Source of the DNA: Pedobacter sp. | GTDB lineage: Bacteria > Desulfobacterota > Desulfuromonadia > Desulfuromonadales > Syntrophotaleaceae | NCBI GenBank assembly: GCA_050253415.1 | Contig: JBFWJC010000002.1 | Location: 704,725-768,724, forward strand | Length of the DNA: 64,000 nucleotides | Direction: 5' to 3' | Part shown: positions 32,451 through 47,257 of the stretch, piece after piece | How the letters are laid out: each line of letters opens with the position of its first letter | Position numbering within the stretch: position 1 is the first letter of the stretch | The notes under the pieces: model-generated | Databases searched by the model: none | What the model saw: only the letters and a program-made list of their open reading frames with translations | What the model was told of the DNA's origin: nothing | Position numbers and translations under genes: made by a program

Positions 32451-32587
32451 GATGGTCCTCGCGCGGGATGAAGACCCAAAAGATAGCAATTCGGGCAGCA
32501 AATTCAAAGGGTAAAAGTAGCTGGTGTCTATCCGGTAGCTCAGGATGGAAACAAGTTTCGGGGCTTCAGGTGGAGCAAGCGTATTTT

Positions 32588-33682
32588 TTAGAACAGGGCG
32601 TCGATGGTGTCGAAGTCGATGGCGGTTTCGGCCAGCTTTTGCAGCAGGCTGATTTTTTCCTTGTCCTCTGGGTGGATTTTGGCCGTATCGTTGGCGATGG
32701 TTGAAAACACCTCAGCGCTGCTGAGTTTTTCCACGCGCATGTAGGGGATGTTGCTGCGGTCGAGGATCTGTTGAGTGACTTCGGATGTGGGATACAGCCC
32801 GGGGATAGCCAGGGCCACGATTTTAGAGCGGTATTCCGGAATATTGTACAACGACGCCAGGGTGACCAGTAATTCATTGCGCGTACTGGTGACGATGATC
32901 AGGGTCGAATCTTCCAACAAGTCGGCAACGCGTTGGGTGGAGGCTGCGCCAAGGTGAACGTGGTGAATGATGTGATGCTCTGCATCCATGTCGCCCTTGA
33001 GAGAGGAGTTGAGCAGATGGGCAATGTGTTTGACGGTCGGGTTGGCGAGAATCGGCGAATAGTTGAATCCCCCTATGACCTGGAACGGCATATTGGCAAA
33101 GGCAATGCCGAGATATTTCAGGGTAGTATCGCGTTTGTGCGGGAGTAGTTTATTCACCAGTACCAAGCGCAGATCGGCATGTTTTTGCTGGCACAGAGCA
33201 TAATTCAGGTACACGTTGTCGATCACCCGGCCAATGCCGGCGTCGCTTACCATCAGCATGGGGGCATCGAGCAGGTGGGCCACGTCCGGATTACTGAGGC
33301 TGGCGACGGAGCCGACCCCCAGGTGCCCTGCGCCTTCAATGACCAGGAAGTCGCACCGCCTGGAGAGTTGTTCTGCGGCCGCCGTGATGCGGTTTGTCAG
33401 GGCCTCCGCCGTGATTTTCCCATCGAGTAGCTGGCGGGTTGATTCGGCTTGCAGCACCACCGGCGACATGAAGTCGAGGTCGTCCTCCAGGTCGAATATC
33501 TCCGCAATCAGTGCAGCATCCAGGTCGACCAGGCGCCCTTTGTAAATAGTCGGCTTGGGCCCCAACGGCTTCATGAACCCGACCCGTTTGTACTTTTTTC
33601 GCGCCATGTGCAGCAAAGAGATGCTGGTGGTGGTCTTGCCACATTCCTGTCCGGTTGCGGCAACAAAAATCTTTTTGGTCAC
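32588..33682 (-). CDS. BioD-like P-loop + DRTGG domain protein (Pta N-terminal-like, stand-alone)
   Basis: IFVAATGQECGKT, GFMKP and LVIEGAG motifs with a degenerate DRTGG-like C-terminal half. Start at GTG 33682 is uncertain. Confidence 0.8.
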   Translation of the reverse strand: MTKKIFVAATGQECGKTTTSISLLHMARKKYKRVGFMKPLGPKPTIYKGRLVDLDAALIAEIFDLEDDLDFMSPVVLQAESTRQLLDGKITAEALTNRITAAAEQLSRRCDFLVIEGAGHLGVGSVASLSNPDVAHLLDAPMLMVSDAGIGRVIDNVYLNYALCQQKHADLRLVLVNKLLPHKRDTTLKYLGIAFANMPFQVIGGFNYSPILANPTVKHIAHLLNSSLKGDMDAEHHIIHHVHLGAASTQRVADLLEDSTLIIVTSTRNELLVTLASLYNIPEYRSKIVALAIPGLYPTSEVTQQILDRSNIPYMRVEKLSSAEVFSTIANDTAKIHPEDKEKISLLQKLAETAIDFDTIDALF

Positions 33683-33862
33683 GGCCCATTCCTTCAAAAG
33701 GGAAGAACGCACATAAAACCCGATGCTGAATCTGCCTGGCCATTATAGGACACGATCTCCGTGCTTTCAAAAACTAAAAAGCGATTTCGGTATTTTATCC
33801 GGAAATTTAATGGATTCATTTGTATACGATGACTTTGTACCATGAAGCGTTCGGTAAACAGG

Positions 33863-33906
33863 TTGACAGCGCCTGATTTGTTTCGTTATATTCCATTGGA
33901 ATAGCG
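33863..33906 (+). promoter_or_regulatory. Sigma70-like promoter overlapped by a ModE-like palindrome, upstream of the TonB-dependent receptor
   Basis: TTGACA (33863) -18 nt- TATATT (33887). CGTTATATT-CCATT-GGAATAGCG at 33884-33906. Confidence 0.62.
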
Positions 33907-34008: not shown

Positions 34009-35934
34009 ATGATGAGGAAGAAAGTTCAGTTGATCACACTTTTGGCTTGCGCCCTGGTCTTTGGCGGTGTGGCTAATCTGTGTGCGGCGACCGCCGACGA
34101 CGGTGTGTATCATCTTGGTGAAGTGGTGGTGTCCAGTGAGTCTTCGATCGTTGAATCAGTTGGGGTGACCCATAAAGTTTCGGCAGAAGAGATCGAGAAG
34201 CGCGGTGTTCGCTCCCTTGACGAAGCATTGAACCTGTTGCCCGGTGTGCAGGTAAGGGTCGGTGGGGATGGTGCTCCGCGACTCCAGATGCGCGGTTTCC
34301 GTACCCGGCACATCAAACTGCTGCTCAACGGTACCCCCTTCAATAGTACTTATGACGGTCAGTTCGATCCGGCAACAATTTCTGTGGAAAACATTGCCGA
34401 AATCGTTGTTACCACCGGTGCTACCTCTTCCCTCTATGGATCCGGCGGTAATGCCGGGGTCATCAATATTATCACCAAGAAGGGCACCAAAGGAGCTCAC
34501 GGCTCCGTTGGCGTCGAACTGGGCTCCTGGGATACGAGTTTGCTGCGCGGCACCGCCTCCTACGGCGCTGATAAGTACGATGTTTTGGTCAGTGGCAGCC
34601 TTTATGATCAGGATAGCTATGAGCTTTCTGATCATTTCTCGCCGACCAAATACGAGGATGGCGACGAGCGCGAAAACAGTGATCGCCAGCGCGACAACCT
34701 GTTTGTTAATGTCGGGGTTACCCCGACGGACGACACCATGATCGGGGCGACGTTTACCTATCTTGCAGGGGATCGCGGCAAGCCGGCGACCACCATTCTT
34801 GATGATTTTACCAGCAAGAAACAGAAGTTCGAACGGGAGGATGATTTGGAGGAGTTCAACGCCCAGTTGGCGTTGAACCATAACTTCAGCGGACCTGTCA
34901 GTCTCAAGGGGTGGGCCTTTTTTAACTCTCTGGACATGGTCGAGACCGAATACAAGGATAATACCTATAGTTCAATTAAGTCTCAGCTCGATTCGAGTAC
35001 CGAGATTTCCGGTGCCAATCTTCAACTGGCCTACGATCTGCAGAAATACGGCAATGCCACCCTTGGTCTGATGATGGAAAATGACGATTGGGAGGCGGAA
35101 GACACTCTCTCTGGCGACACGGAAGATAAGGATTTTCAGCTCTACTCTGTAAATTTTGAATATGAAGTCAAGCCTCTTAACGATATGGGTGCTGTGCTTG
35201 GTCTTGGCTATCATTGGCAGGATCGCAGTGAAAAGGACGAAGAGGACTATTCCTATCTTATCGGTCTTTATTACGATCTCTTTGACGGCACCCGCTTGAA
35301 AGCTTCCCATGCCCGCAAGATTCGCTTCCCCACCCTGCGCGACCTTTATTCCAGCGATGGTAATGAGGATCTCGGTTGCGAGGTGACCTGGCATTCTGAG
35401 GTCGGTATTGAGCAGGCCCTGCCGGCAGCAACCACGTTGTCGTTAACCGGTTTCTATATCGATGTTGAAGATTACATTGCCAAGGATGGATCACAACGTC
35501 AGAATTTTGAAGAATACGAGTTTAAAGGCATTGAAGTGCTGGTTGAAAACCGCTATTTCGCCAAGCTTTTGCTGCGGGCGGGGTATACCTATCTTGATAC
35601 CGAGGACAAGTCTTCCGACCTTGTCGATGAAGTAAACAATAATCCCAAGCACAAGGCAACGCTCGAGGCGACTTACCAATTGCCATGGCGCATGTCCATC
35701 TATGGCAGTGCTATGTATGTGGCCGAATCCTATACTTATAGCAGCGACAATACTGTGCAGAAGCGCCTTCCCGAGTATGTGGTCTGCGATGTCCGCATTA
35801 ACAAGAGTGCTGCCAATGGTGCCCTTGACCTTTATTTTGGTATCAATAATATGTTCGATGCCGACTACGCACCGACCTACGGCCTGCCTCAGCCTGGTCG
35901 TTACATGTATGGCGGGGTGACCTGGAAGTTCTAA
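34009..35934 (+). CDS. TonB-dependent outer-membrane receptor
   Basis: Signal peptide, TonB box (LGEVVVS), plug motifs (LNLLPGV, MRG, IAEIVV...LYGSGGNAGVINIITKK) and C-terminal NMFD...GRYMYGGVTWKF. Confidence 0.95.
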   Translation: MMRKKVQLITLLACALVFGGVANLCAATADDGVYHLGEVVVSSESSIVESVGVTHKVSAEEIEKRGVRSLDEALNLLPGVQVRVGGDGAPRLQMRGFRTRHIKLLLNGTPFNSTYDGQFDPATISVENIAEIVVTTGATSSLYGSGGNAGVINIITKKGTKGAHGSVGVELGSWDTSLLRGTASYGADKYDVLVSGSLYDQDSYELSDHFSPTKYEDGDERENSDRQRDNLFVNVGVTPTDDTMIGATFTYLAGDRGKPATTILDDFTSKKQKFEREDDLEEFNAQLALNHNFSGPVSLKGWAFFNSLDMVETEYKDNTYSSIKSQLDSSTEISGANLQLAYDLQKYGNATLGLMMENDDWEAEDTLSGDTEDKDFQLYSVNFEYEVKPLNDMGAVLGLGYHWQDRSEKDEEDYSYLIGLYYDLFDGTRLKASHARKIRFPTLRDLYSSDGNEDLGCEVTWHSEVGIEQALPAATTLSLTGFYIDVEDYIAKDGSQRQNFEEYEFKGIEVLVENRYFAKLLLRAGYTYLDTEDKSSDLVDEVNNNPKHKATLEATYQLPWRMSIYGSAMYVAESYTYSSDNTVQKRLPEYVVCDVRINKSAANGALDLYFGINNMFDADYAPTYGLPQPGRYMYGGVTWKF

Positions 35935-35965: not shown

Positions 35966-36004
35966 AAGCGGGCCGGATTCCGAAACGGGATCCGGCCGCT
36001 TTTT
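35966..36004 (+). terminator. Intrinsic terminator after the TonB-dependent receptor
   Basis: GCGGGCCGGATTCC-GAAAC-GGGATCCGGCCGC-TTTTT. Confidence 0.8.
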
Positions 36005-36060: not shown

Positions 36061-36104
36061 TTGACTTGGTCATTGTTTTTCGCTATATTCCGCCATTAAT
36101 AACG
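36061..36104 (+). promoter_or_regulatory. Sigma70-like promoter overlapped by a ModE-like palindrome, upstream of the ECF operon
   Basis: TTGACT -17 nt- TATATT. CGCTATATT-N6-TTAATAACG at 36081-36104. Confidence 0.68.
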
Positions 36105-36190: not shown

Positions 36191-37561
36191 ATGGATGTCC
36201 TTTTGCAACTCAAGAACTTTTCCTTTGCTTATCCAGGGATAGCTAAGGATATCTTGCATGGTGTCAACCTCGCGATCGAGCCGGGGTGTTGCTATTGTCT
36301 GACCGGGGCAACCGGTTCCGGTAAAACGACTCTGGCTCTGGCTTTGAAAGGGCTGTTGGAAAACGATTGCTGCACAGGGGACATCGTGCCTCCCGCGGCG
36401 TCTGACTTGGCCGACTTTCGGGTTGGTCTGGTATTGCAAAATCCTGAAACCCAGCTGCTGGCCACCACTGTCGGTGCCGAGGTGGCTTTTGGTCTCGAAA
36501 ATCTCTGCGTCGACCCCCAGGCTATGCCGGAGCGGGTCGAGGCCGCCCTATCTCTCGTTGATCTCCGCAAACCCCTCGATTATCCCGTTGCCATGCTGTC
36601 CATGGGACAGAAATACCGCTTGCTGATAGCGGCGTTGCTGGTCATGGAACCTCAGTTGTTGATACTCGATGAACCTGCGGCGCAGCTCGACCCAGAGGGG
36701 TTGTCGGCCCTCTGCGATATCCTTTCCATTTTGAAGTCCAGGGGGGTTGCCGTGGTGTTATGTGAGCACCACCCCGGACCGTTACTTGAGCTGGTGGATC
36801 ATTTCTGGCAACTAGACTGCGACGGCAGGCTTTCTCCTGGGCGTTGGCAGGCACCCTGCGAGTTGCAGACTCCTTCGGTGTCGCAAGGTGTCGGGGTTCT
36901 TTCCGACGCTCCGATTCTGCTTCAGGTGCGGGATCTGACTTTTATGGGGTATGGGGATAAGCCGGTTTGGGATGGCGTTTCCTTTGACATCAGGCGCGGG
37001 CAGTGTGTCGTTATAACGGGCATGAACGGAACGGGAAAGACCACTCTTTTGCGAGTGCTTGCCGGGTTTCTCAAGCCGGGAAGCGGCAATATCCGGATCT
37101 TCAATGCCGAACCGGATCCCCGTTTGTTGCGTCGCAGGCTGGGGTGCCTGTTTCAGAATCCCCATAAACAGATTTTTGAAAACACCGTGCGCGAGGAGAT
37201 TGCCTTTCCCTTGAAACGATTCGGTTGGCCTTCGGAAGAACGTACCGCCCGTATCGAAGAGACCCTACGTCTGTGCGGTATTGAAAATCTCATCGACGAT
37301 TCGCCGCATAAACTCAGTTACGGTCAAAAACACCTGGTGGCTATTGCTTCGGTATTGGCACCTGCTCCGGAGATGCTTTTAATGGATGATCCCTTTGCCG
37401 GTCTTGACGGTGCGCGCCAGCGGGATGTGATGAGGGTTCTGGCCGACTGGAACAGGGAACAGGGAGTCACCTTGGTGATGACGTCGCACGACCCCGATCA
37501 AATTCCGGTCTTGGCCGACGGTCATTTGCATATCGAAGGGGGCCACATTGGCTGGCAATAG
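36191..37561 (+). CDS. ECF-type transporter fused double ATPase (EcfA-A')
   Basis: Two Walker A motifs (GATGSGKT, GMNGTGKT), Q-loops LQNPETQL and FQNPHKQI, EVAFGLEN, and LSMGQ/LSYGQ signatures. Confidence 0.9.
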   Translation: MDVLLQLKNFSFAYPGIAKDILHGVNLAIEPGCCYCLTGATGSGKTTLALALKGLLENDCCTGDIVPPAASDLADFRVGLVLQNPETQLLATTVGAEVAFGLENLCVDPQAMPERVEAALSLVDLRKPLDYPVAMLSMGQKYRLLIAALLVMEPQLLILDEPAAQLDPEGLSALCDILSILKSRGVAVVLCEHHPGPLLELVDHFWQLDCDGRLSPGRWQAPCELQTPSVSQGVGVLSDAPILLQVRDLTFMGYGDKPVWDGVSFDIRRGQCVVITGMNGTGKTTLLRVLAGFLKPGSGNIRIFNAEPDPRLLRRRLGCLFQNPHKQIFENTVREEIAFPLKRFGWPSEERTARIEETLRLCGIENLIDDSPHKLSYGQKHLVAIASVLAPAPEMLLMDDPFAGLDGARQRDVMRVLADWNREQGVTLVMTSHDPDQIPVLADGHLHIEGGHIGWQ

Positions 37562-38249
37562 TTTTTTGCGTATGCACGGGGCGTTGGCCCATGGCCAGCG
37601 TCGAGACGACGGCCCCGAAAAGTCCGACAGGGGGCTGCCCTTGCCGGTGGGTGTCAAGATGCTGCTGGCGTTAACCCTTTCCTGTGGGGCTTTTGTGGCC
37701 CGTACCGGAACATTTCTCGGGGGACTTACCGCCGTCAATGCGCTGGTCTTTTTGCTGCTCCGCCCACAGGGCCTGTCCTGGTGGCGGCAAGGGAGATATT
37801 TTCTGGTTCAATCCTCCACCGTCATGGTGCTTTATATTATTCGGTTCCGATCTCTGTCAGGAGTATGGGACGGACTCTTGATTTCCTGGCAGCTTTTTCT
37901 GGCCTTTTGGCCGACCATGGTTTTCGCCAAAACCACTTCGCAAACGAAGATTGTGCGTGCCATGAATCGCGTCATACCGAGCCGTATGTCGTTCGTGCTG
38001 GCCACCTGTCTTAAATTCGCGCCGCACTTGCTGGAAGAAGTGCGGGACATTTACGAAGGGCAGGTATTGCGCGGTGCCAGGATCCTGCCTAAAGATCTGG
38101 TAAAACCGTCGAATTGGCCCGACCTTATGCATTGTGTTGTAGTGCCGGCCGTTGTGCAGGGGATGGCTCTGGCCAGCAATATTGCTCTGGCGGCGCGTGC
38201 ACGCGATTTTGGACTGTACCGCAGGCGTACCTGTTGGCCTGGGGAATAA
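37548..38249 (+). CDS. ECF transporter transmembrane T component (CbiQ/EcfT-like)
   Basis: Hydrophobic N-half plus the two Arg motifs (VLRG and RARDF). Start codon uncertain. Confidence 0.8.
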   Translation: MAGNSFLRMHGALAHGQRRDDGPEKSDRGLPLPVGVKMLLALTLSCGAFVARTGTFLGGLTAVNALVFLLLRPQGLSWWRQGRYFLVQSSTVMVLYIIRFRSLSGVWDGLLISWQLFLAFWPTMVFAKTTSQTKIVRAMNRVIPSRMSFVLATCLKFAPHLLEEVRDIYEGQVLRGARILPKDLVKPSNWPDLMHCVVVPAVVQGMALASNIALAARARDFGLYRRRTCWPGE

Positions 38250-38277: not shown

Positions 38278-38832
38278 ATGGTCAAGTCGTTTGTGGCGCG
38301 TTTTTCAGACAGTTTTCGCTTGCCTCTCAAGGATGCCTTGTTTCTTGGTTTTTGCGCTGTGTTTGCGGTGCTGGTGCGGGTTGTCCTGCGACTGCATCTG
38401 AGCATCTCCGGGCACGCCATGATTATCAAGATTTTCTTTTTGATGTTGGGCAGGGCGAGCACTCCCTGTCGCTACGGTGCCAGTTTTACGGCGCTGCTGG
38501 CTGGGACGGCAGCCATGTTTCTCGGGTTTGCCAAGGCTGGTCCATTTATAGTCGTCAAATACCTGATGGCGGGTGTGATTATTGACCTTTCGGCCTATTT
38601 CCTGCCGGTACTGTTTAGCAGCTATGTCTTGTGTGCCCTGGTGGCGGCAGTGGCATCGTCCACCAAGTTCGCTACCGCCTACGCAGTTAATGCCATGGTT
38701 GGTATGGATCCGGTGGTAAATATGCAGCGATCCCTTCTGGAAGCGACGGGTGCAGTGATTTTTGGCGTCATCGGTGGTTTGCTGGTGCCGATGGTTGTGC
38801 GACGTCTCAAGGCTTACGGCGTTATTCGATAG
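38278..38832 (+). CDS. Putative ECF substrate-specific S component
   Basis: About 184 aa with roughly six hydrophobic segments, directly after EcfA and EcfT. Conserved-looking LHLSISGH loop. Confidence 0.7.
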   Translation: MVKSFVARFSDSFRLPLKDALFLGFCAVFAVLVRVVLRLHLSISGHAMIIKIFFLMLGRASTPCRYGASFTALLAGTAAMFLGFAKAGPFIVVKYLMAGVIIDLSAYFLPVLFSSYVLCALVAAVASSTKFATAYAVNAMVGMDPVVNMQRSLLEATGAVIFGVIGGLLVPMVVRRLKAYGVIR

Positions 38833-38872: not shown

Positions 38873-39616
38873 ATGATGAAAATTCTTGTATGTATCGACG
38901 ACACGGATAATCTCGAATCACGCGGCACCGGTGATCTGGCGACGGAACTCGCCGAAGAACTCGAAAATCGTGGTTGGGGGCGCAGTAGCTTTGTGACCCG
39001 TCATCAATTGCTGGTGCACCCCGATGTGCCTTACACGTCGCACAATAGCTCCATGTGTTTTGAGGCGGAGATCGATCCTGCTTATCTGGAGTCGCTGATT
39101 TCCTACGCCGGAGAGTATCTGGAGAGAGAAAGTGCCACCGGTTCCGATCCTGGCCTGTGTGTTACTGTCTTGGAACGCCTGGCGGAACCGCAAGCGATGG
39201 TAGATTTCGGGCGCAGTGCCAAAGAAACGGTGCTTAACAAAAAAATGGCCTATGACCTGGCAGAGAAGTTAGGTGTGCACCTTTCCGAGCATGGCGGTAC
39301 CGGGCAGGGCGTGGTCGGTGCATTGGCCGGTATCGGCCTGAGGATGAGTGGCAAGGACGGGCGCATGAAAGGCTGGTTGAAAATCAGCACCGATAACGGG
39401 CTGGCCCGGGTAGGCGATATCTTGGATGAGGTAGATCTGCGGGGTGTTCGCACCATGGCCGGCGAGGTGCTTGGCCACGAAGAAATCGTAGCCGTTGATG
39501 ACAAACCGAAAGCGGTCATGGTCGATGGTGGCACTTATTTGATGGTGTCGCCGGTGGATAATGGTGACGGGGTACGCTGGCGCACCACTCCGCGGCAGCA
39601 ACTCAAGCGGTTTTGA
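38873..39616 (+). CDS. Stand-alone TiaS/DUF1743-like protein (DDTD motif)
   Basis: ILVCIDDTD...GTG, TRHQL..HPDVPYTSHNS, SDPGLC and GGTGQGVVGALAGIG parallel the N-terminal core of TiaS. It appears to lack the C-terminal OB and Zn-ribbon domains. Confidence 0.72.
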   Translation: MMKILVCIDDTDNLESRGTGDLATELAEELENRGWGRSSFVTRHQLLVHPDVPYTSHNSSMCFEAEIDPAYLESLISYAGEYLERESATGSDPGLCVTVLERLAEPQAMVDFGRSAKETVLNKKMAYDLAEKLGVHLSEHGGTGQGVVGALAGIGLRMSGKDGRMKGWLKISTDNGLARVGDILDEVDLRGVRTMAGEVLGHEEIVAVDDKPKAVMVDGGTYLMVSPVDNGDGVRWRTTPRQQLKRF

Positions 39617-39626
39617 GGAGGACGCC

Positions 39627-39830
39627 ATGTGGCATAGCAATAAACACGGAGAACGCGAATTCCGCCATGGCCAGGAAGCCTATAGCCTTGCCGCGGATCA
39701 AGCCGGGGCTTGCCATCACTTTTGCCCCGACGTGGAGGAGGAATGGGCTACCGATGACGAGCGTTCCTGCTACAACTGCCGGCTAAGACGCTGGACAGTT
39801 GCCTCATTCCTTTGCATGCGGCCAGCCTGA
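39627..39830 (+). CDS. Small Cys-rich protein (67 aa)
   Basis: Strong GAGGAGG ribosome-binding site and operon spacing. CHHFCPDVEEE...SCYNCRLRRW...LC contains five Cys. Confidence 0.72.
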   Translation: MWHSNKHGEREFRHGQEAYSLAADQAGACHHFCPDVEEEWATDDERSCYNCRLRRWTVASFLCMRPA

Positions 39831-39859
39831 TCGTTGTTATGAACCATATAGGGGGATCC

Positions 39860-40675
39860 ATGTACACAAGACTGCTGATGGCTGTAATAGTTATGCTGCT
39901 GGGCGCCGGGTGGTCGGCGGCGGAGGATTGGGTTCAGGAAAGTCCGGGACAAAAAGCATACTACGACGCAGATGGCAACTTGGTACGGGTGCTGCTCGAC
40001 ACGGATGGCGACAAAAGGTTCGAAACCGAAGAACTTTACGGGGGGCGGCGTCTTTCCCGGCGCGAAGATCGGGACGGAGACGGCGTCTGGGAGCGCCAGT
40101 TCTCCTGGCAGAAGGATGGTTCGGCCATCCTGGTGGAGGACCGGGGTAAAGGGGCCAGGCAGACAACCTGGTTCGATTCCCGGGGTACCATGATTAAGGT
40201 GGAAAAAGATAAGGATCGCGACGGATGCCCTGAAACCACCTGGCATTATGAAAGGGGAGTGTTGCGGGAGGTTGTCAAAGCCCGTGGTACCTGGTTTTAT
40301 AAGGATGGCCAGATGATTCATGCCGAAATCGATACAGATCGTGATGGCCGGATCGATCGTAAGGAATATTATAGGCAGGGTCATCTGGATCGCGCAGAGG
40401 AGATGAATGCTTCCGGCAAGGTCCGCTGCGTGTGGACCTTTGATACAAGCGGCAGGCCGTTGCGGGCTGAAGAGGATGCCAACGGCGACGGGCGCAGGGA
40501 GACCACCCGCGTTTATCAAAAGGATGGCTCCCAGAGCATGACCGTGGATGCTGATGGAAACGGTACACCCGAACTTCGAGAACATTATTCGGCAAAAGGG
40601 CGGATGATCAGTCGCGAAGAAGATCTGGACGGCGACGGTGTATTTGATTTGCGCACCGGACGCGTTAAGGAGTAA
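39860..40675 (+). CDS. Exported repeat protein with multiple Dx[DN]xDG motifs
   Basis: Signal peptide MYTRLL...WSAA. Repeats DTDGD, DRDGDG, DKDRDG, DTDRDG, DANGDG, DADGNG and DLDGDG. Confidence 0.78.
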   Translation: MYTRLLMAVIVMLLGAGWSAAEDWVQESPGQKAYYDADGNLVRVLLDTDGDKRFETEELYGGRRLSRREDRDGDGVWERQFSWQKDGSAILVEDRGKGARQTTWFDSRGTMIKVEKDKDRDGCPETTWHYERGVLREVVKARGTWFYKDGQMIHAEIDTDRDGRIDRKEYYRQGHLDRAEEMNASGKVRCVWTFDTSGRPLRAEEDANGDGRRETTRVYQKDGSQSMTVDADGNGTPELREHYSAKGRMISREEDLDGDGVFDLRTGRVKE

Positions 40676-40680
40676 GGAAC

Positions 40681-41385
40681 ATGCAGAGCTGGGTTGCTTT
40701 TATGGAAAAAGCCGGTCCCATCGGGATCACTATTCTTTTCTGTTCGGTGATCGCACTGTTTATCATCATCGAACGGGTCCTGGCCTACCGGTCGCTCCGG
40801 TTGAAAGACCCGCGCCTGTTTCATCGTTTGCGCAAACGGGCGCAAGAAGGTCAGTTTTCCGAGGCCGCCACCATGGTCAGGGATGAGCGCCATCCCTGGG
40901 CGGTGGCCATGACAGAGGTTCTGGCACGCCTTGACAGTAAGACCCGCGCTACCGGTCGCACCGAGCTGGAAAAAACCTTCGCCCATGCCGCGACGCGCGA
41001 AGTGCGCAAGATGGAACGCTTTCTCCCCACCCTGTATCTTATCGCCAGTATCTCGCCGTTGCTCGGTCTGCTTGGCACGGTGGCGGGCATGATCAAGGCT
41101 TTTCAGGCCATTGAAAACCTCGGCGGTAAAGTCGATTCATCGGTGCTGGCGGGGGGGATATGGGAAGCGATGTTGACCACTGCTCTTGGCCTCGGGGTGG
41201 CTATCCCGGCCATGGTGGCGCATAACTACCTGCAAGGTAAAGTGCATGCCATGGTGGCCGATATGAAGGAAGAAACCGGAGTTTTTCTCGACGCCCTCGA
41301 AGATACCGGGCAGCTCGGAGTCAACAAGGATAAAGGTCTGGCTTCGGTTCATTCCGTGCCCGGTGCTGGCAGGGAGGCTCGATAA
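40681..41385 (+). CDS. exbB: ExbB/TolQ/MotA proton channel
   Basis: SPLLGLLGTVAGMIKAF and LAGGIWEAMLTTALGLGVAIPA motifs. Confidence 0.93.
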   Translation: MQSWVAFMEKAGPIGITILFCSVIALFIIIERVLAYRSLRLKDPRLFHRLRKRAQEGQFSEAATMVRDERHPWAVAMTEVLARLDSKTRATGRTELEKTFAHAATREVRKMERFLPTLYLIASISPLLGLLGTVAGMIKAFQAIENLGGKVDSSVLAGGIWEAMLTTALGLGVAIPAMVAHNYLQGKVHAMVADMKEETGVFLDALEDTGQLGVNKDKGLASVHSVPGAGREAR

Positions 41386-41786
41386 TGGATATCCCGGTTC
41401 GCTCCCAGACGACGGGGTTGAACCTGACCCCTCTTATCGATATCGTATTCCTGCTGCTGGTTTTTTTTCTGCTTACCACGCAATTTATAGAGGAAGACGG
41501 CATCGGTGTGCGGCTGCCGGCGGCCACCGCCAGCACTACCCGCGAGAAGGACGAGATTGCGGTGGCCATCACGCGTGATGGGAAGTTGTTTGTCGCAGGT
41601 CAGCCACTGCCGTTATCCGACCTCGAGCAGAAGCTGCGCAGCCTGCTCGGGGCTGACACAACGGTTGTTATCCGCGGAGACCGGGATGTCCCTTTGCAGA
41701 CAGCGGTTTCTGTCATGGAGCGATCCAAGAAAGCTGGGGCAGTGCGTATTGTCGTTGCAACGCTTGAAGAAGCAGGCTCGCCGTGA
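41385..41786 (+). CDS. exbD: ExbD/TolR
   Basis: LNLTPLIDIVFLLLVFFLL and VIRGDRDV motifs. Confidence 0.93.
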   Translation: MDIPVRSQTTGLNLTPLIDIVFLLLVFFLLTTQFIEEDGIGVRLPAATASTTREKDEIAVAITRDGKLFVAGQPLPLSDLEQKLRSLLGADTTVVIRGDRDVPLQTAVSVMERSKKAGAVRIVVATLEEAGSP

Positions 41787-42523
41787 AGACCTCTCGCACA
41801 TGGATGGCCCTGGGCACATCTCTCACTATACATATAGGCCTGGTGCTGGTCCTCGGTATGGGATTGATGCAACCCCATCGGGTGGTCAATCGCATAGAGG
41901 TCAATCTCGAGGGGGCCGCAGTACCCAGCAGGCCGCCGGGAGTGCAAGCTCCGTCGCCCGTTGCCGGTCCGGAAATGCCTAACTCCGCATCCCTGCCGAC
42001 GTCGACGTCGGTCGCTCCGCATCTGTCTTTGAAGGCACCTTCTGTCGTTGCACCGGCTCCGGCCAATTTCGATGATGATGGAGCGCTTCCGCCGCCGGTT
42101 GCCGGAGGGGTGCCTGGGCCCATCGGTGTACCTCTGCATGCCGTGAGTGGGGGCGGCATGGACGGGGCGGGTTCGGGTAGCGGTCCCGGTGTAGCCGGAG
42201 GTGGGCAAGGTCGGCAGGGAGCAGGACCTTCATCCGCATTGGCCGGCTATCTCAATGCCATAAGGGCCCGCGTGGATGCCGCTAAGCGTTACCCTCAGAT
42301 GGCCCAGCAGCGTCGCCTGGAAGGAGTTGTTGTCGTAACCTTCCGGTTGACCTTCGATGGTCGATTAATGGGTGAGCCTCTGGTCACCAGGAGCTCAGGT
42401 TCAAAGCAGCTCGATAGGGCCGCGTTGCTGGCGGTGCGACGTGGTGCTCCTTATCCTTCCTTTCCATTGAATCCGAAGGATATGAAAGCGCTCGAAATTC
42501 CGGTGAAGTTTTTCCTGCGCTGA
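41783..42523 (+). CDS. tonB: TonB energy transducer
   Basis: N-terminal TM SxxxH (SLTIH), Pro/Gly-rich linker, YP..A...RLEG and RSSGSKQLDRAAL. Confidence 0.9.
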   Translation: MKTSRTWMALGTSLTIHIGLVLVLGMGLMQPHRVVNRIEVNLEGAAVPSRPPGVQAPSPVAGPEMPNSASLPTSTSVAPHLSLKAPSVVAPAPANFDDDGALPPPVAGGVPGPIGVPLHAVSGGGMDGAGSGSGPGVAGGGQGRQGAGPSSALAGYLNAIRARVDAAKRYPQMAQQRRLEGVVVVTFRLTFDGRLMGEPLVTRSSGSKQLDRAALLAVRRGAPYPSFPLNPKDMKALEIPVKFFLR

Positions 42524-42557
42524 GCAGGGGGGCTTATCTGTGAGTCGGTTAAACTGG

Positions 42558-42586
42558 AAAATCCGCAATTAATTGCGGATTTTTTT
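42558..42586 (+). terminator. Perfect palindrome with T-run after tonB
   Basis: AAAATCCGCAATTAATTGCGGATTTT followed by TT. Confidence 0.7.
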
Positions 42587-42676: not shown

Positions 42677-43921
42677 ATGGGAAAGCATGCAGCATCCACT
42701 CTGGTGGGGATGGACGAAAATGTGCAGTTACCGGTAGAGAGTCTGCCGGCGCAGCACTGGGATGTGATTATTGTCGGAGCAGGACCGGCGGGCTGTGTTG
42801 CGGCCATAGAACTGGCCGGGATGGGGCACCGCGTATTGCTGGCCGACCGGGATTGGTTTCCGCGCGATAAAGTTTGCGGTGACGGACTTACCCCGGGTGC
42901 CATCCGGATTCTGCGGCGTTTGGGGCTTTATGATACGGTAAGAAAAGTTGGACGACACTGCTCGGAGATGAGTGTCTTCAGTCCGGCACATGTTCGTATC
43001 GATGTGCCGGGAGACTATATAACCGTAAGGCGCAAAATTCTTGATCAGCTAATGGTTCGCAAGGCACTTGCTGCCGGGGTGACTTTTGTTCGGGGCACGG
43101 CCGATATTCTGGAATCGCAAGCTGATAGCAAAGCAAACGTGCACTTTGGTGAAGGTCAGGCGGTGCACACCGCAGAATGTTGTCTGTTGGCGACCGGAGG
43201 ACGGCTGGCTCTGGCGCAAAGAGCGGGCCTGGTGACGCATCCAGTTGCCAGCGGAGCAGCGGTTCGTTGTTATATTCGCTCACGTATATCTCTTGATCGA
43301 CTGGTCGTTGCCTGCGAACGCAATATTCTGCCTGGTTACGCCTGGATCTTTCCTGTCGACAAGGATCTGTTCAATGTTGGCTGTGGTCGCTTCATGTACG
43401 GCCGCAACGAAAAGCATGTCAGCCTTCGAAAAGTCTTTGCGGCTTTTGTCGACGAATTTCCTCTGGCCCGGGAACTTTTGAGCCAGGGCGCAATCGAAAC
43501 GCCTTTGAAAGGCGGTGTTCTTCGCAGTGGCTGGCAGCAGGCGGGACCAATGGCCCGCGGGCCTTTTTTAGGCATGGGGGAAATGGTCGGTACAACCTCG
43601 CCTTACACCGGTGAAGGTATAGGCAAGGCCATGCAAAGTGGTGTTCTGTCAGCCAGGCTTGTGCATCGGTGTCTTCTTAAAGGGGAGATGTCCGCATTGC
43701 GGCGTTACCCGGAATATCTTCAACAGCTTGGGGGGTTGCATTACGAAGGGTTCAAGCGTACCCGTCGTTGGTTTTTGCAGCCCTGGTTGGTCGACTTTTT
43801 TGCTCGTCGCATAAACAGAAGTCCCTACCTGTACGAAACTTTCAAAGGTATTCTCCAGGAAAAAAACGACCCCGCGCAGGTCTTCTCCTGCCGCGGGGTT
43901 TGGCGTTCTCTTTGGCACTGA
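42677..43921 (+). CDS. Geranylgeranyl reductase-family FAD oxidoreductase
   Basis: DVIIVGAGPAG, FPRDKVCGDGL, GYAWIFP and PYTGEGI..AM.SG motifs. Confidence 0.88.
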   Translation: MGKHAASTLVGMDENVQLPVESLPAQHWDVIIVGAGPAGCVAAIELAGMGHRVLLADRDWFPRDKVCGDGLTPGAIRILRRLGLYDTVRKVGRHCSEMSVFSPAHVRIDVPGDYITVRRKILDQLMVRKALAAGVTFVRGTADILESQADSKANVHFGEGQAVHTAECCLLATGGRLALAQRAGLVTHPVASGAAVRCYIRSRISLDRLVVACERNILPGYAWIFPVDKDLFNVGCGRFMYGRNEKHVSLRKVFAAFVDEFPLARELLSQGAIETPLKGGVLRSGWQQAGPMARGPFLGMGEMVGTTSPYTGEGIGKAMQSGVLSARLVHRCLLKGEMSALRRYPEYLQQLGGLHYEGFKRTRRWFLQPWLVDFFARRINRSPYLYETFKGILQEKNDPAQVFSCRGVWRSLWH

Positions 43922-43956
43922 TACCTTGGCGTCATCTCCATTATCTTCTGATGCTC

Positions 43957-45087
43957 TCAGTGAAGAGAATTTCCCTGATTCAATGAACGTATCTGGGCTT
44001 CCGTGTAGTCGTCAAACCAGTATGCTTGCGGATTACGTTTGAACGCCAGGAGTTCATCGAGTCTCTGTCTGGAGTCTGCCGGGCGGTGATAGCGGAAAAA
44101 AATCTGATCCTTTGTCAGGCCTGCAACCTCAATTTTACCGGTAACATGAGACATGGCGTACCGACTGCGGCGAGCGAGCCCGGAGCAGGCTTTGAGGGCC
44201 TCGGCAAAAACTCCATAGCCTTTTTCGATGGGGACGGTGTAGGCGGCATTGCCTTCAGTGGGGCGGCATTGGAAAACATAGTAGGGCGCAATGCCGAGAT
44301 ATGACAATTCGTTGAGCAACTTCGATAAAACTCTGGGGTTATCATTGACGCCTTGGATCATGGGCGTCTGATGCATGATACTCACTCCGCATTTTTGTAT
44401 CTGGTCCAGTGCGCGCCGTGCTTCGGGTGTCAGTTCCCTGGGGTGATTGAACTGCGCCATAAGGTAGATCCGTCGATCAGACAAACTATGGGTTTTGAAC
44501 ATCTGCAGAAGTTCCGGATCATCCAGAATGCGAAAAGGATTAAAGGCAAGCATTTTGGTGCCTATGCGAATGATCCGCACGTGATCGATAGCGCGCAACT
44601 GCTCGATTATTTCCGTCAGTTTGTGCGTTGAAAGGAGCAGAGGATCCCCTCCTGTAACAAGCACATTATTGATTTCAGGGTGTTTGCGAATGTATTCCAA
44701 CCCACCGGAAACATCCCTTGCCACTTCCTGATTGTCCTCCATAAAAAGGCGCTTGCGAAAACAGAACCTGCATAAAGCTCCGCAGACATCGCTCACCAGC
44801 AGTACCGCCGTGTCGGCATATTTGTGCTCAAGTCCCGGAGCTTTGGCATAATGAGATTCGCCGGATGCGTCAAGAGCCCCCCAGGGTTCAAGCTCGTCCG
44901 TACTGGGAATAACAATGCGGCGAATAGGATCCTTTGGGTCATCCCAGTCGATGAGTGATTGGTAGTACCCGTTAGTCCGGAAAGCATAGCGTTCTTCGAC
45001 AACGCGCAGATTCTGACGCTGCTTATCGCTCAATGCTTCCAGTTCAGGAATCTGATCAATGCTTGTGATGTACTTCCTGTAGCTCAT
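43957..45087 (-). CDS. KamA-family radical SAM protein (aminomutase-like)
   Basis: GLEHKY, CGALCRFCFRK, LVTGGDPL, IIRIGT, FNHPRE and GVND motifs. Confidence 0.88.
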   Translation of the reverse strand: MSYRKYITSIDQIPELEALSDKQRQNLRVVEERYAFRTNGYYQSLIDWDDPKDPIRRIVIPSTDELEPWGALDASGESHYAKAPGLEHKYADTAVLLVSDVCGALCRFCFRKRLFMEDNQEVARDVSGGLEYIRKHPEINNVLVTGGDPLLLSTHKLTEIIEQLRAIDHVRIIRIGTKMLAFNPFRILDDPELLQMFKTHSLSDRRIYLMAQFNHPRELTPEARRALDQIQKCGVSIMHQTPMIQGVNDNPRVLSKLLNELSYLGIAPYYVFQCRPTEGNAAYTVPIEKGYGVFAEALKACSGLARRSRYAMSHVTGKIEVAGLTKDQIFFRYHRPADSRQRLDELLAFKRNPQAYWFDDYTEAQIRSLNQGNSLH

Positions 45088-46141: not shown

Positions 46142-46948
46142 ATGGCCGGCAGACATGAGGTGCAGAACAAGTTACAGGGTGAAACCTTGGGACGTAAAGG
46201 TTTGATGAAAAAACATGATCATATTCAGCCGATGCGTTTGGTTCCGGATTTACAGGTGGTGAAGATCGGAGGGCATGGCACCATCGATTTTGGGCGTGAG
46301 GTTGTCATGCCGCTGCTTGAGGAGATTGGCGAACAGGTTAAGAACCATAAAATGCTGGTGGTAACCGGCGGAGGGGTCAGGGTGCGCCACATTCTCGATG
46401 TGGGCATTGACCTCGGTATGCCTACGGGAGTGCTTGCGAAACTGGCTAGCAAAATTAGTGAACAGAATGCGGAAATGGTTGCGTTGCTTCTTTCAAAATG
46501 GGGTGGAACGCATATCGACAGCGGCGACATTCTTGAACTGCCTATGTTGCTTAAGCTGGGGTTCTTGCCTGTAACCCATGGGACTCCTCCGTATGGACTG
46601 TTTGAACATCCGCCGGAGTTCGGGTTGATACCTCCTCATCGCACCGATACGGGGGCCTTTTTGATGGCAGAAGTTCTCGGAGCCAAAAGTTGCATCCTGG
46701 TGAAAAACGTGGATGGACTTTACACTGAAAATCCTACGGTCAATCCGGATGCCGAATTGATCGAAGACATAACCGTGGATGAGTTAATCGCGATGGATAT
46801 GGAGGATATGGTAATGGAAAGCAAATTGCTGTATCTGCTTAAGGATGCAAACAGTCTCAAAGAATTGCGAATCGTCAATGGCCACAAGCGTGGAAATGTG
46901 GAAAAAGCACTGCGTGGAGAAAAGGTCGGCACGATCATCCGTGTCTAG
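46142..46948 (+). CDS. Molybdenum storage protein (MoSto MosA/MosB)-like, UMP-kinase fold
   Basis: RLVPDLQVVKIGG, TGGGVRVRH...GIDLGMPTGVLA, PPY, IPPHRTDTGAFL, KNVDGLYT.NP and VNG...AL.GE.VGTII match motifs recalled from Azotobacter MosA/MosB. Confidence 0.85.
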   Translation: MAGRHEVQNKLQGETLGRKGLMKKHDHIQPMRLVPDLQVVKIGGHGTIDFGREVVMPLLEEIGEQVKNHKMLVVTGGGVRVRHILDVGIDLGMPTGVLAKLASKISEQNAEMVALLLSKWGGTHIDSGDILELPMLLKLGFLPVTHGTPPYGLFEHPPEFGLIPPHRTDTGAFLMAEVLGAKSCILVKNVDGLYTENPTVNPDAELIEDITVDELIAMDMEDMVMESKLLYLLKDANSLKELRIVNGHKRGNVEKALRGEKVGTIIRV

Positions 46949-47047: not shown

Positions 47048-47257
47048 ATGAGTGGAAAGATTTTTTATCGTGAGCGGCGTAAGGTCGTCGACGGAGGCAA
47101 GCAGCCGCGCTATGTGCTGGTAGCTGTGGCGGATGTCAATCTGAAGGTATTCGGAAAGCACCTGCGGATGAGTGAAATGAAAGCCATTGCTGAAGCCACC
47201 GGTGCCGAGTTGGTGCCACTGCCGCGCGGCAGCAAGCACGCGGAAGAAGAAGAATAA
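47048..47257 (+). CDS. Small conserved protein, probable HgtR-like transcriptional repressor
   Basis: 69 aa, AGGAGG ribosome-binding site, terminator downstream. MSGKIFYRERRK...PRY.LVAV...HLRMSE...GAELV resembles Geobacter HgtR from recall only. Confidence 0.6.
   Translation: MSGKIFYRERRKVVDGGKQPRYVLVAVADVNLKVFGKHLRMSEMKAIAEATGAELVPLPRGSKHAEEEE

Follow-up and report, generated by a model that had tools for sequence, protein, structure and literature searches.

A stand-alone bacterial protein with the TiaS kinase-domain fold and a small four-cysteine partner in a putative tungsten/molybdenum import operon

Introduction

The Thr18-Cyt34 kinase domain (TCKD) is a rare kinase fold that is, to our knowledge, known only from TiaS. 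TiaS is an archaeal enzyme which serves AUA decoding where TilS is missing. It phosphorylates a carbonyl oxygen, at C2 of cytidine, so that an amine can displace it, and in doing so cleaves ATP to AMP and PPi. We found no published work on a stand-alone bacterial TiaS-like family and no literature joining TiaS and tungstate, and the titles and abstracts of the papers on COG1571, DUF1743, PF22641 or TiaS_TCKD mention nothing about bacteria or metals.

The acquisition, selection and storage of tungsten and molybdenum in anaerobes is, as far as we know, described only for the ModABC, TupABC and WtpABC pumps, the TOBE/Mop binders and the MoSto cage of Azotobacter. The MoSto protein of Azotobacter vinelandii (MosA/MosB) is an alpha/beta heterohexamer, and MoSto cages store inorganic polyoxometalates. 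A further importer of both oxyanions is the type II ABC system MolBC-A of Haemophilus influenzae (HI1470/71/72), whose binding protein MolA binds free molybdate or tungstate. We know of no TCKD partner of MolBC-A, and of no TCKD or small-protein partner of MoSto. Here we describe a bacterial locus in which a TCKD protein is encoded within a transporter operon, and compare it with these systems.

Results

The window, by which we mean the whole 64-kb stretch of DNA that was analysed, carries at 38873..39616 on the plus strand the gene of a stand-alone TCKD-fold protein of 247 residues, reading from an ATG at 38873 to a stop at 39616. We refer to it as TiaS-like. Residues 1-157 form a TiaS-type kinase domain and residues 160-247 a family-specific beta-rich domain. 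A sequence-only reading of this DNA had pointed to three motifs shared with TiaS. The open reading frame and two of the motifs, IDDTD-x5-GT (residues 8-20) and G.GVVGALA (residues 144-152), are present and lie beyond chance according to the profile and structure matches given below. The middle motif is also present (residues 44-58), but it reads HQL-x6-PYTSHN and not with the spacing of five residues that had been claimed.

As a single sequence, the protein reaches 25.3 bits with Pfam TiaS_TCKD (PF22641; cut-off 27), over model positions 2-56 of 156 only, and 27.3 bits with NCBIfam TiaS (NF040849; E 1.3e-6, cut-off 600). Its residues 2-158 match the TiaS chains in the PDB with E values of 0.004-0.006. 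Some relatives carry a precomputed Pfam TiaS_TCKD match, and a profile of 60 family sequences matches four TiaS chain sequences at E values from 3e-14 to 2e-12. When the AlphaFold model (pLDDT 95.6) is compared with solved structures, TiaS 3amu is the top row in Foldseek (E 1e-11, rmsd 2.0 over 158 columns). VIA-align gives Z 22.9 for 3amt_A (rmsd 1.8 A, 154 residues, 25% identity); the first unrelated row follows at Z 7.8. From these profile and structure matches we conclude that the proposed kinship of the N-terminal core with the TiaS TCKD is correct, and that the homology of residues 1-157 is genuine and spans the whole domain despite the sub-threshold Pfam score.

The residues D9, H44, N58, G146, G149 and L156 are invariant in the family alignment, and conservation reaches at least 90% for D10, T11, D12, T19, G20, R43, Q45, Y54, T55, S56, H57 and S59. 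Aligned to the TiaS chains, D9, D10, T11, D12 and T19 correspond to TiaS D8, D9, T10, D11 and T18. The protein therefore shares with TiaS (3AMT, 3AMU, 3AU7, 4RVZ and 5XOB, and the P. furiosus fragment 3U02) the TCKD fold in its N-terminal 157 residues, the IDDTD motif, the counterpart of T18, the P-x-P-Y-T..N loop and the G-x-G-[LV]-[IV]-G-A-L-A loop. The best NCBIfam match is to methanogenesis marker protein 11 (TIGR03280; E 2.2e-14), with residues 1-157 aligned to model positions 132-283. This match covers the C-terminal half of the model only and scores 53.3 bits against a cut-off of 255.8. By the NCBI definition marker protein 11 is found in methanogens only, and judged by this alignment it apparently forms a third branch within the TCKD superfamily. 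The TiaS-like family itself falls into 821 clusters at 50% identity and over 6000 at 90%, and includes Pcar_2393 of Syntrophotalea carbinolica and a Geobacter homologue. Matches in the protein atlas were confined to unnamed or COG1571-style clusters. In a few relatives the protein is joined to an FAD oxidoreductase of the glycerol-3-phosphate dehydrogenase type, a combination with no obvious tungsten or molybdenum meaning.

Outside the kinase domain the protein and TiaS differ. TiaS has about 420 residues (chains of 402-440) instead of 247, some 260 of them after the TCKD instead of 88, and possesses FLD, OB and Zn-ribbon domains, none of which was matched in the bacterial protein. TiaS_FLD (PF08489) gave no match at E 0.01, and the C-terminal 88 residues, which fold alone with a pLDDT of 86.9, have no solved-fold match in Foldseek (best rows weak OB-like proteins, E 0.067) or VIA (best rows ubiquitin-like, Z 2.5); in both cases a missing match is no proof of a different fold. 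Since what follows the TCKD is just these 88 residues, with zero cysteines and no fold match, we agree with the earlier suggestion that the OB and Zn-ribbon domains are missing. While TiaS is archaeal, the host of the 247-residue protein is a bacterium with a TilS of its own (187.8 bits with the N-terminal model TIGR02432, cut-off 93.6), and the gene context is metal transport. Because TilS is encoded in the same genome, a role in tRNA modification is unlikely, as had been supposed.

Only 10 nt after the stop of the TiaS-like gene, behind a GAGGAGG, follows a gene for a protein of 67 residues with four cysteines (39627..39830, plus strand). An alignment of 34 sequences shows no variation at C29, C48, C51, R54, R55 and W56, and at least 90% conservation of C63; the protein also contains the acidic stretch PDVEEEW. 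No Pfam family exists for it, and its 833 clusters in the protein collection are all unnamed. A gene of this kind is found within 400 nt downstream of the TiaS-like gene in 44 of 108 loci. The four-cysteine protein may supply metal-binding cysteines in trans. Both this gene and the MoSto-like gene described below had been overlooked in the sequence-only reading.

The two genes are the fourth and fifth of a unit of nine on the plus strand, bracketed by a promoter-like site at 36061 and a terminator-like hairpin at 42556. The unit begins with an ECF-type energising ATPase of 456 residues with two fused ABC domains (36191..37561; Pfam ABC_tran twice), which scores 285 bits with NCBIfam cbiO (cut-off 212) and just misses ECF_ATPase_1 (301 bits, cut-off 315). 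The T (transmembrane coupling) component of the CbiQ family comes next (37548..38249; Pfam CbiQ 34.6 bits, cut-off 25), so that, judged by these domain matches, the operon holds a predicted ECF module of an energising ATPase pair and a T component. The third gene encodes a small membrane protein of 184 residues (38278..38832) that resembles an S component in having several hydrophobic stretches and in its position after A and T. It has no family in Pfam or NCBIfam. Of 33 long metagenome loci, 8 have a homologue (33-65% identity) that comes after the ECF A and T genes and adjoins the TiaS-like gene; 13 of 47 short loci also contain one. Behind the four-cysteine gene lies a secreted or periplasmic protein with DxDGDG-type repeats (39812..40675), assigned from sequence with only weak EF-hand matches and conserved only in the close relatives L001, L002, L063 and L064. 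Translation probably begins at the ATG at 39860, ahead of a signal-peptide-like stretch. The unit ends with ExbB (40681-41385; Pfam MotA_ExbB), ExbD (41385-41786; Pfam ExbD) and TonB (41783-42523; Pfam TonB_C), the energy-coupling set of the receptor described next, and is closed by a hairpin of 13 pairs (42556..42585, plus strand). With ECF and ExbB-ExbD-TonB genes in one unit, the location of the TiaS-like gene inside a transporter operon is borne out.

Upstream of the unit, also on the plus strand, a TonB-dependent outer-membrane receptor of 641 residues is encoded at 34009..35934 (Pfam Plug and TonB_dep_Rec_b-barrel). It is 33-47% identical to receptors adjoining the TiaS-like gene in other loci, and its best NCBIfam matches are siderophore, B12 and heme receptor models, all under their cut-offs. 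The receptor gene is preceded by a promoter-like site at 33863..33894 (plus strand; TTGACA-18-TATATT, 11 of 12 matches), which overlaps the 14-nt word TTTCGTTATATTCC at 33881-33894, and is followed by a terminator-like hairpin at 35971..35997 (plus strand; 12 pairs, 9 of them G-C, with a T run). The promoter-like site of the nine-gene unit at 36061..36091 (plus strand; TTGACT-17-TATATT) contains the shared word as TTTCGCTATATTCC at 36078-36091. Immediately upstream of these, on the opposite strand, are the nickel-pincer cofactor genes LarC (30511-31695) and LarB (31692-32507) and a gene for an AAA_26/DRTGG protein. Two other candidates were rejected as parts of the system: a GGR-like gene recurs only in L002, and a KAM-like gene, one of five KAM-like genes genome-wide, has counterparts in L002 and, with 35% identity, in L044 and L059.

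A MoSto homologue of 268 residues (Pfam AA_kinase), one of two in the genome, is encoded 6.5 kb downstream at 46142..46948 on the plus strand. It is 44% identical (E 6e-73) to a protein encoded next to the TiaS-like gene in locus L052, whose own match to Azotobacter MoSto beta (2ogx_B) has an E value of 2.6e-63. A conserved basic protein of 69 residues (MSGKIFYRER..., 47048..47257, plus strand) travels with the MoSto-like genes: its reading frame also adjoins the second MoSto-like gene of the genome, separates the TiaS-like from the MoSto-like gene in L047, L050, L052-L055 and L059, and was found in 19 loci. Among 401 genomes of the phylum, 31 contain the TiaS-like family, 33 a MoSto-like gene and 23 both, against about 2.6 expected by chance, although these are related genomes and not independent samples. 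In 16 of the 23 genomes with both, no more than 1.3 kb separates the two genes, and such single-gene homologues of MoSto usually adjoin the TiaS-like family. Eight of the 31 genomes with the TiaS-like family lack a MoSto-like gene at E 1e-40. Ten genomes have a MoSto-like gene only, five of which carry MoSto-like genes as pairs on one contig. The TiaS-like family thus co-occurs with dedicated tungsten and molybdenum genes.

Relatives of the TiaS-like gene adjoin ECF, MolBC-A-like or TupABC/WtpABC importers. The window's own subfamily is found with ECF or FecCD-type systems, and a sister subfamily beside TupABC/WtpABC and MoSto-like genes. Neighbours in related loci include TupA-like binding proteins (247 and 177 bits, missing the TupA model cut-off of 400), a WtpA (375 bits, cut-off 243) and TOBE-type ATPases, and regulators with PBP_like and HTH_17 domains stand beside 3 of 33 long loci. 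Tub of E. limosum is a TOBE protein and not a member of the TiaS-like family (PMC11980592). In 13 of the 33 long loci the TiaS-like gene directly follows a complete set of FecCD permease, ATPase and class III binding protein. These sets resemble MolBC-A, in whose place the window has an ECF-type importer and a TonB-dependent receptor. The binding protein of one such locus has H. influenzae MolA (HI_1472) as its second-best PDB match (E 1e-21), with the Ni-binding protein chains 4ino and 4ls3 among its other matches (E 1e-16).

Moco/Wco riboswitches (RF01055) were found in 12 of 37 related loci, with 19 matches. In L085, L101 and L003 they lie directly upstream of the TiaS-like gene, and in L074 and L101 between the four-cysteine partner and the ECF ATPase gene. 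All riboswitches found in the relatives are of this type except for a single c-di-GMP-I element. None was found in the eight Tup/Wtp-type loci, and in the 64-kb window no Rfam family, riboswitches including the cobalamin riboswitch among them, matched at threshold. The titles and abstracts retrieved for the Moco riboswitch together with TonB-dependent, ECF and tungsten contain nothing relevant. The original paper on the Moco RNA motif is said to be that of Regulski et al. in 2008, and its gene lists could already include the TiaS-like family as 'hypothetical'.

The genome also has Tup and Wtp systems. The word TTTCG[CT]TATATTCC of the two local promoters is present at just two sites in the 4.1-Mb genome, both of them in the window locus, and is absent from the tup, wtp and second MoSto loci. 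A search for a common operator in nine upstream regions of tungsten and molybdenum genes of the genome gave a best score of 38, compared with 36-37 in shuffles, and so revealed none. As the word is private to the locus, the window itself shows no regulatory tie to the two metals.

Discussion

We consider it probable that the TiaS-like protein is an ATP-dependent enzyme which, together with its four-cysteine partner, processes imported tungsten or molybdenum and does not modify tRNA. Our reading is based on the fold and motif homology, on the anatomy of the operon with its conserved partner gene, and on the ties of the family to both metals that are seen in genomes and riboswitches. The earlier proposal of a link to the imported cargo remains the best reading of the operon context and of the tungsten and molybdenum neighbours of the relatives. 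Its naming of Mo/W chelates among the substrates to be assayed was likewise on target, given that Moco/Wco riboswitches precede relatives of the gene and that tungstate importers and MoSto-like genes are found next to them.

The TiaS-like protein would be a cytoplasmic enzyme on the TCKD fold that keeps the DDTD, Thr and glycine-rich motifs, and in which an 88-residue domain of its own would replace all tRNA-binding domains. With the four-cysteine protein it would form part of a tungsten/molybdenum acquisition system, represented in the window by the TonB-dependent receptor, an ECF-type importer with a putative new S component and ExbB-ExbD-TonB, with a MoSto-like store nearby. By analogy with TiaS, ATP would be used in the same manner, and an oxygen of imported tungstate or molybdate, or of a W/Mo complex, might be activated by phosphoryl or adenylyl transfer, for which the phosphorylation of the cytidine carbonyl oxygen offers a parallel. 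The metal could then be taken over by the thiolates of the four-cysteine protein, by the MoSto-like store or by a cofactor pathway. A more specific version, which we regard as tentative and on balance fairly unlikely, has the TCKD protein and its partner as a catalytic core in which a metal-oxo oxygen is phosphorylated or adenylylated and replaced by cysteine thiolates, an oxo-to-thiolate exchange. Protein-bound W/Mo would pass to MoSto-like cages or cofactor synthesis, the importers would be the first of ECF type and with TonB dependence for these metals, and methanogenesis marker protein 11 may work by the same chemistry.

Several observations speak against a role in tungsten and molybdenum handling. 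The window has no Rfam match at threshold and no regulatory tie to the metals, eight of the 31 family genomes lack a MoSto-like gene and none of the eight Tup/Wtp loci has a riboswitch. Importers of the ECF and TonB/BtuCD type usually carry vitamins, chelates, nickel or cobalt and not free oxyanions. The adjacency of LarB/LarC, the Ni-binding relatives of the MolA-like protein and the FAD oxidoreductase fusions may be added here.

One alternative is that the cargo is organic, either a pterin cofactor or one of its precursors (salvaged Moco/Wco, molybdopterin or cPMP) or metallophore-bound W/Mo, with the TCKD enzyme phosphorylating a ring carbonyl in the manner of TiaS on cytidine, an idea close to the earlier sequence-only proposal. 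Cofactors and chelates are established as typical cargo of ECF and TonB/BtuCD-type importers, the kind found with the window's subfamily in place of the oxyanion systems Tup and Wtp, and a Moco/Wco riboswitch would suit cofactor salvage as readily as metal uptake. But the sister subfamily has oxyanion importers of the TupABC/WtpABC kind and MoSto-like cages as its immediate neighbours, the binding protein of the FecCD-type loci is similar to MolA, and no pterin-binding family was detected. The pterin pyrophosphokinase HPPK does appear among the weak structural matches, but its Z of 6.9 is inside the noise band of the tool, and the activation of a pyrimidine or pterin carbonyl, as proposed from the sequence, found no direct support. 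We think an organic cargo unlikely.

That the protein is no enzyme in metal processing at all seems to us distinctly unlikely. It could instead serve as a chaperone that binds W/Mo, regulate the transporter or MoSto, or act as a protein kinase on nothing but itself or its small partner. TiaS autophosphorylates Thr18, and the aligned Thr19 is conserved here. The conserved family-specific residues H44, S56, H57, S59 and R164 are, as read from the alignment, of a kind that may bind oxyanions, and cytoplasmic molbindin-type binders commonly accompany Mo/W importers. Against this, the fully conserved acidic DDTD and the glycine-rich loop are more typical of a working nucleotide site.

The operon could also import another metal or chelate, such as nickel or cobalt, an iron-siderophore or heme, which the protein would then process. 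The LarC, LarB and AAA_26/DRTGG genes immediately upstream, the CbiQ and CbiO components, which are those of classic Ni/Co importers, the sub-threshold siderophore, B12 and heme models of the receptor and the related binding protein's matches to 4ino and 4ls3 would all agree with this. However, no CbiM/NikM-type S component was found with Pfam and no cobalamin riboswitch in the window, and the riboswitches of the relatives are, with the single c-di-GMP-I exception, all Moco/Wco. The Lar genes accompany the TiaS-like gene in only one other locus, that of the close relative L064, among about 108 loci, which is why we rate the nickel reading low. This explanation as a whole seems to us very unlikely. 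An RNA-modifying enzyme like TiaS, with the four-cysteine protein encoded next door as the Zn ribbon in which TiaS ends, would account for the TCKD fold, but it is extremely unlikely in view of the TilS in the genome, the absent FLD or OB match (in Pfam and for the C-terminal domain against solved folds), gene surroundings that consist throughout of transport, storage and Moco/Wco riboswitches, and the acidic character of the partner, which is unlike an RNA binder.

If the processing of tungsten and molybdenum by the TiaS-like protein is correct, an ATP-consuming enzymatic step would join the trafficking of the two metals, and ECF-type and TonB-dependent importers, which are not known for W/Mo, would be linked to both. 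It would also hint at what two widespread small proteins without a name do, and perhaps methanogenesis marker protein 11 as well, and there may be relevance for the heterologous production of tungsten enzymes. The TiaS-like family is large and tied to tungsten and molybdenum genes and to Moco/Wco riboswitches, and it would bring to the biology of these metals a step that has so far been undescribed.

Homology to the TiaS kinase domain

The open reading frame from 38873 (ATG) to the stop at 39616 (+ strand, 247 codons) contains the motifs cited in the sequence-only reading, although the middle one has the spacing HQL-x6-PYTSHN and not x5. The resemblance to TiaS claimed in that reading proved to be true homology by both profile and structure comparison. 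The 247-residue protein reaches 25.3 bits against the Pfam family TiaS_TCKD, which describes the Thr18-Cyt34 kinase domain of archaeal TiaS, and falls marginally short of the threshold of 27. Its best NCBIfam matches are methanogenesis marker 11 (E 2.2e-14) and TiaS (E 1.3e-6), both well under cut-off. A PDB search with the single sequence retrieved TiaS chains (E 0.004-0.006, residues 2-158), and with the profile of our family alignment (60 members), positions 1-157 matched the sequences of four TiaS chains (E 3e-14 to 2e-12). The AlphaFold2 model built from this alignment has a mean pLDDT of 95.6. Foldseek, which had been suggested as a check, places TiaS 3amu at the top rank (E 1e-11, rmsd 2.0, 158 columns), and the independent VIA-align search gives 3amt_A a Z of 22.9 (rmsd 1.8 over 154 residues) and 3u02_A a Z of 15.6, compared to 7.8 for the best unrelated row.

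In the single-sequence PDB alignment D9, D10, T11, D12 and T19 correspond to TiaS D8, D9, T10, D11 and T18, and the family alignment shows each of them as invariant or conserved to at least 90%. It also reveals family-specific conservation of H44, Q45, S56, H57, S59 and a GNDGR motif.

Only 88 residues follow the kinase domain, none of them a cysteine. This C-terminal part, folded alone from a 65-sequence alignment, reaches a pLDDT of 86.9 and has no match in the PDB (best Foldseek E 0.067, best VIA Z 2.5). The OB fold and the Zn ribbon are therefore absent, in agreement with the loss proposed earlier, although the tail could be a strongly altered FLD. The protein is kinase-domain-like yet not a TiaS, from which it departs in domains, score and biological role, and by NCBIfam score it is closer to methanogenesis marker 11, a family with no function assigned. 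The sequence-only reading is upheld as an observation and in part as an interpretation: what stands is a TCKD homologue that lacks the OB and Zn-ribbon domains and sits in a transport context.

Organisation of the locus

The locus consists of a receptor gene and a nine-gene unit. A promoter-like site at 33863 precedes the TonB-dependent receptor gene (34009-35934), and a hairpin resembling a strong terminator (35971-35997) follows it. The unit has its own promoter-like site at 36061 and opens with a fused double ECF ATPase (36191-37561) and a T component of the CbiQ type (37548-38249). Next come a 184-residue hydrophobic protein with no family match (38278-38832), the TiaS-like gene, a 67-codon four-cysteine ORF (39627-39830, 10 nt past the TiaS-like stop and preceded by GAGGAGG), a secreted DxDGDG-repeat protein (ending at 40675) and ExbB, ExbD and TonB (40681-42523), and a terminator-like hairpin at 42556 ends the unit. 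The word TTTCG[CT]TATATTCC covers the -10 box of both promoter-like sites (33881-33894 and 36078-36091) and has two copies in the 4.1-Mb genome, both in this locus. Judged from the sequence, it is a candidate private operator co-regulating the receptor and the ECF unit. The flanks of the two copies also align (GGTAAA..GTTGAC..AATAgCG..TTGA).

Downstream of the unit lie a MoSto-like gene (46142-46948), related to the Azotobacter molybdenum-storage protein, and beside it a 69-codon ORF (47048-47257). Between TonB and the MoSto-like gene, positions 42677-45087 hold a gene for a geranylgeranyl-reductase-like flavoprotein (+) and a radical SAM gene resembling lysine-2,3-aminomutase (-). Aminomutase-like genes are also found near the TiaS-like gene in loci L002 (81% identity), L044 and L059 (35%), a proximity that may be chance given five such genes in the genome.

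Family members and their importers

The family has more than 6000 matches among 90%-identity clusters and 821 representatives at 50% identity. Among named relatives Syntrophotalea carbinolica Pcar_2393 comes closest, at 83% identity, and the gene is single copy in this genome. In 20 genome loci, each extended to about 18 kb, the gene adjoins importers of three types. One is ECF combined with a TonB-dependent receptor, another joins a FecCD permease with an ATPase and a class III binding protein, and the third is a tungstate system of the Tup/Wtp type with TOBE ATPases. Neighbouring binding proteins score 247 and 177 bits with NCBIfam TupA, both below its 400-bit cut-off, and 375 bits with WtpA, over the cut-off. 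For the L045 binding protein, H. influenzae MolA ranks second among PDB matches (E 1e-21), ahead of the Ni-binding protein chains 4ino and 4ls3 (E 1e-16). An AA_kinase-family gene is nearby in nine of the 20 loci; in a comparison with solved structures, the one in L052 proved closely homologous to Azotobacter MoSto (2ogx_B, E 2.6e-63). From 80 metagenome loci we used the 33 of at least 6 kb for neighbour counts. An ECF A/T/S set is present in eight of these, a related receptor in eight, a class III binding protein in 16 (13 with the full FecCD-type set), and a MoSto-like gene and a PBP_like plus HTH_17 regulator in three each.

In a quick maximum-likelihood tree of 111 rows, a deep split (SH-aLRT 99) separates a branch of 13 rows, mostly beside Tup/Wtp and MoSto genes, from one of 98 rows beside ECF and FecCD-type importers. 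Importer type switches many times inside the larger branch, and our protein belongs to a supported nine-row clade of ECF loci. Some operons behind FecCD-type importers carry the gene twice or three times in tandem, as diverged copies with 33-52% identity to the query (L113 6380-8765, L114 166-2157, L130 8001-9503). The TiaS-like protein is also found in rare fusions, with one or two sequences per type (P0134, P0273, P0274, P0275, P0272, P0271), some of which may be artefacts of gene calling. The fused partners are a FAD oxidoreductase of the DAO type that carries a BFD-like [2Fe-2S] domain, a DUF1667 and Pyr_redox_2 protein, a class III binding protein and a glycosyltransferase of family 2. 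In the Paenibacillus locus L005 the TiaS-like gene is followed by a DAO/DUF1667 ORF.

Small partner proteins

The 67-residue ORF is conserved from Desulfuromonadales through Paenibacillus. The residues C29, C48, C51, R54, R55 and W56 never vary, C63 is conserved to at least 90%, and an acidic PDVEEEW stretch precedes the SCYNCRYRRW motif. Its profile is positive in 48 of 108 de-duplicated loci, 44 of them with the ORF at most 400 nt downstream of the TiaS-like gene, and many loci lacking it stop too soon to reveal one. The profile search found none in sister-subfamily loci. The protein collection holds 833 clusters, every one unnamed, and a Pfam comparison gave no family. Another unnamed protein, basic and of 69-77 residues (M[AS]GKIFYRER...GAELV), is always beside single-gene MoSto homologues. 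Examples are window 47048-47257, G000:C1 next to 1258462-1259268, L047, L050, L052-L055 and L059, and the search found the protein in 19 loci.

Link to tungsten and molybdenum

We consider it highly probable that the family serves tungsten or molybdenum, a link examined by two independent tests, one of shared occurrence across genomes and one of riboswitches. We searched 401 genomes of the phylum for the family (E 1e-10) and for MoSto-like genes (E 1e-40). The family is present in 31 genomes (with two partial matches, G160 and G164) and the MoSto-like gene in 33; 23 genomes have both, eight the family only, ten MoSto only and 360 neither. Chance would give an overlap of about 2.6, and we state no statistic because the genomes, being related, do not count as independent. 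Where both genes occur, they are at most 1.3 kb apart in 16 of the 23 genomes; the distance in the window's genome is 6.5 kb. Half of the ten MoSto-only genomes (G002, G014, G048, G076, G093) carry alpha/beta-like MoSto pairs on one contig, and genomes with a single MoSto-like gene mostly have a TiaS-like gene too. The window's genome also holds a TunR-like regulator adjoining a TupA gene, two WtpA genes, and a Tup operon that contains a second MoSto-like gene accompanied by another copy of the 69-residue ORF.

Of 37 related loci searched with Rfam, 12 contain the Moco/Wco riboswitch RF01055, with 19 matches that are all on the strand of the gene. It occurs in 8/12 loci of a mostly FecCD-type set, in 2/8 and 2/9 of the ECF-type sets and in 0/8 Tup/Wtp-MoSto loci, and the window itself gave zero Rfam matches. 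The TiaS-like gene is first in the operon in L085, L101 and L003, with the aptamer 100-170 nt ahead of it. A further copy separates the four-cysteine gene from the ECF ATPase gene in L074 and L101. Two or three tandem aptamers within a few hundred bases were seen in L111 (9176-9756), L099 (1879-2311), L080 (4380-5031) and L107 (813-1119). The ECF-type locus L117 has a c-di-GMP-I riboswitch (10598-10687) 2 kb downstream of the TiaS-like gene.

Alternative explanations

Both the importer types and the Moco/Wco riboswitch are also compatible with an organic cargo, for example a salvaged pterin cofactor or a tungsten or molybdenum metallophore. This would keep the pterin idea of the earlier reading, and we regard it as improbable. 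Divergently upstream of the receptor, on the - strand (30511-33712), are genes for LarC (Ni insertion protein), LarB (AIR carboxylase-like) and an AAA_26/DRTGG protein. The Lar genes, together with the match of the L045 binding protein to Ni-binding chains, hint at nickel or iron as the cargo. However, the Lar neighbourhood recurs in one further locus only, the close relative L064. As far as sequence can tell, the TiaS-like protein may instead be a binder with no catalytic activity, or act purely as a protein kinase. We think it very unlikely that it modifies RNA; the genome carries a TilS gene scoring over its curated cut-off, and lysidine formation is therefore catered for.

Proposed mechanism

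The kinase fold and its motifs, both acidic and glycine-rich, are established directly, as are the conservation of the partner, the operon and the tungsten and molybdenum company. On balance we favour an ATP-using enzyme in a tungsten or molybdenum process. TiaS converts ATP to AMP and PPi, autophosphorylates Thr18, and places a phosphate on the carbonyl oxygen at C2 of C34 that agmatine can then displace. The TiaS-like protein would bind ATP in the same manner. By the simplest analogy, it would activate a metal-oxo or hydroxo oxygen of imported tungstate or molybdate, thiolates of the four-cysteine partner would displace the activated oxygen, and the metal would enter either the MoSto-like store or cofactor synthesis. 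H44, Q45, S56, H57, S59 and the GNDGR motif might shape the new substrate site. This specific activation and thiolate displacement chemistry is a speculative, rather doubtful extension by analogy. Within the limited literature searched, we found no publication on the bacterial family or on TiaS-type proteins tied to tungsten or molybdenum. The family would represent a known TiaS-type fold in an undescribed role, with a mechanism that is proposed only and a biological setting that is well supported.
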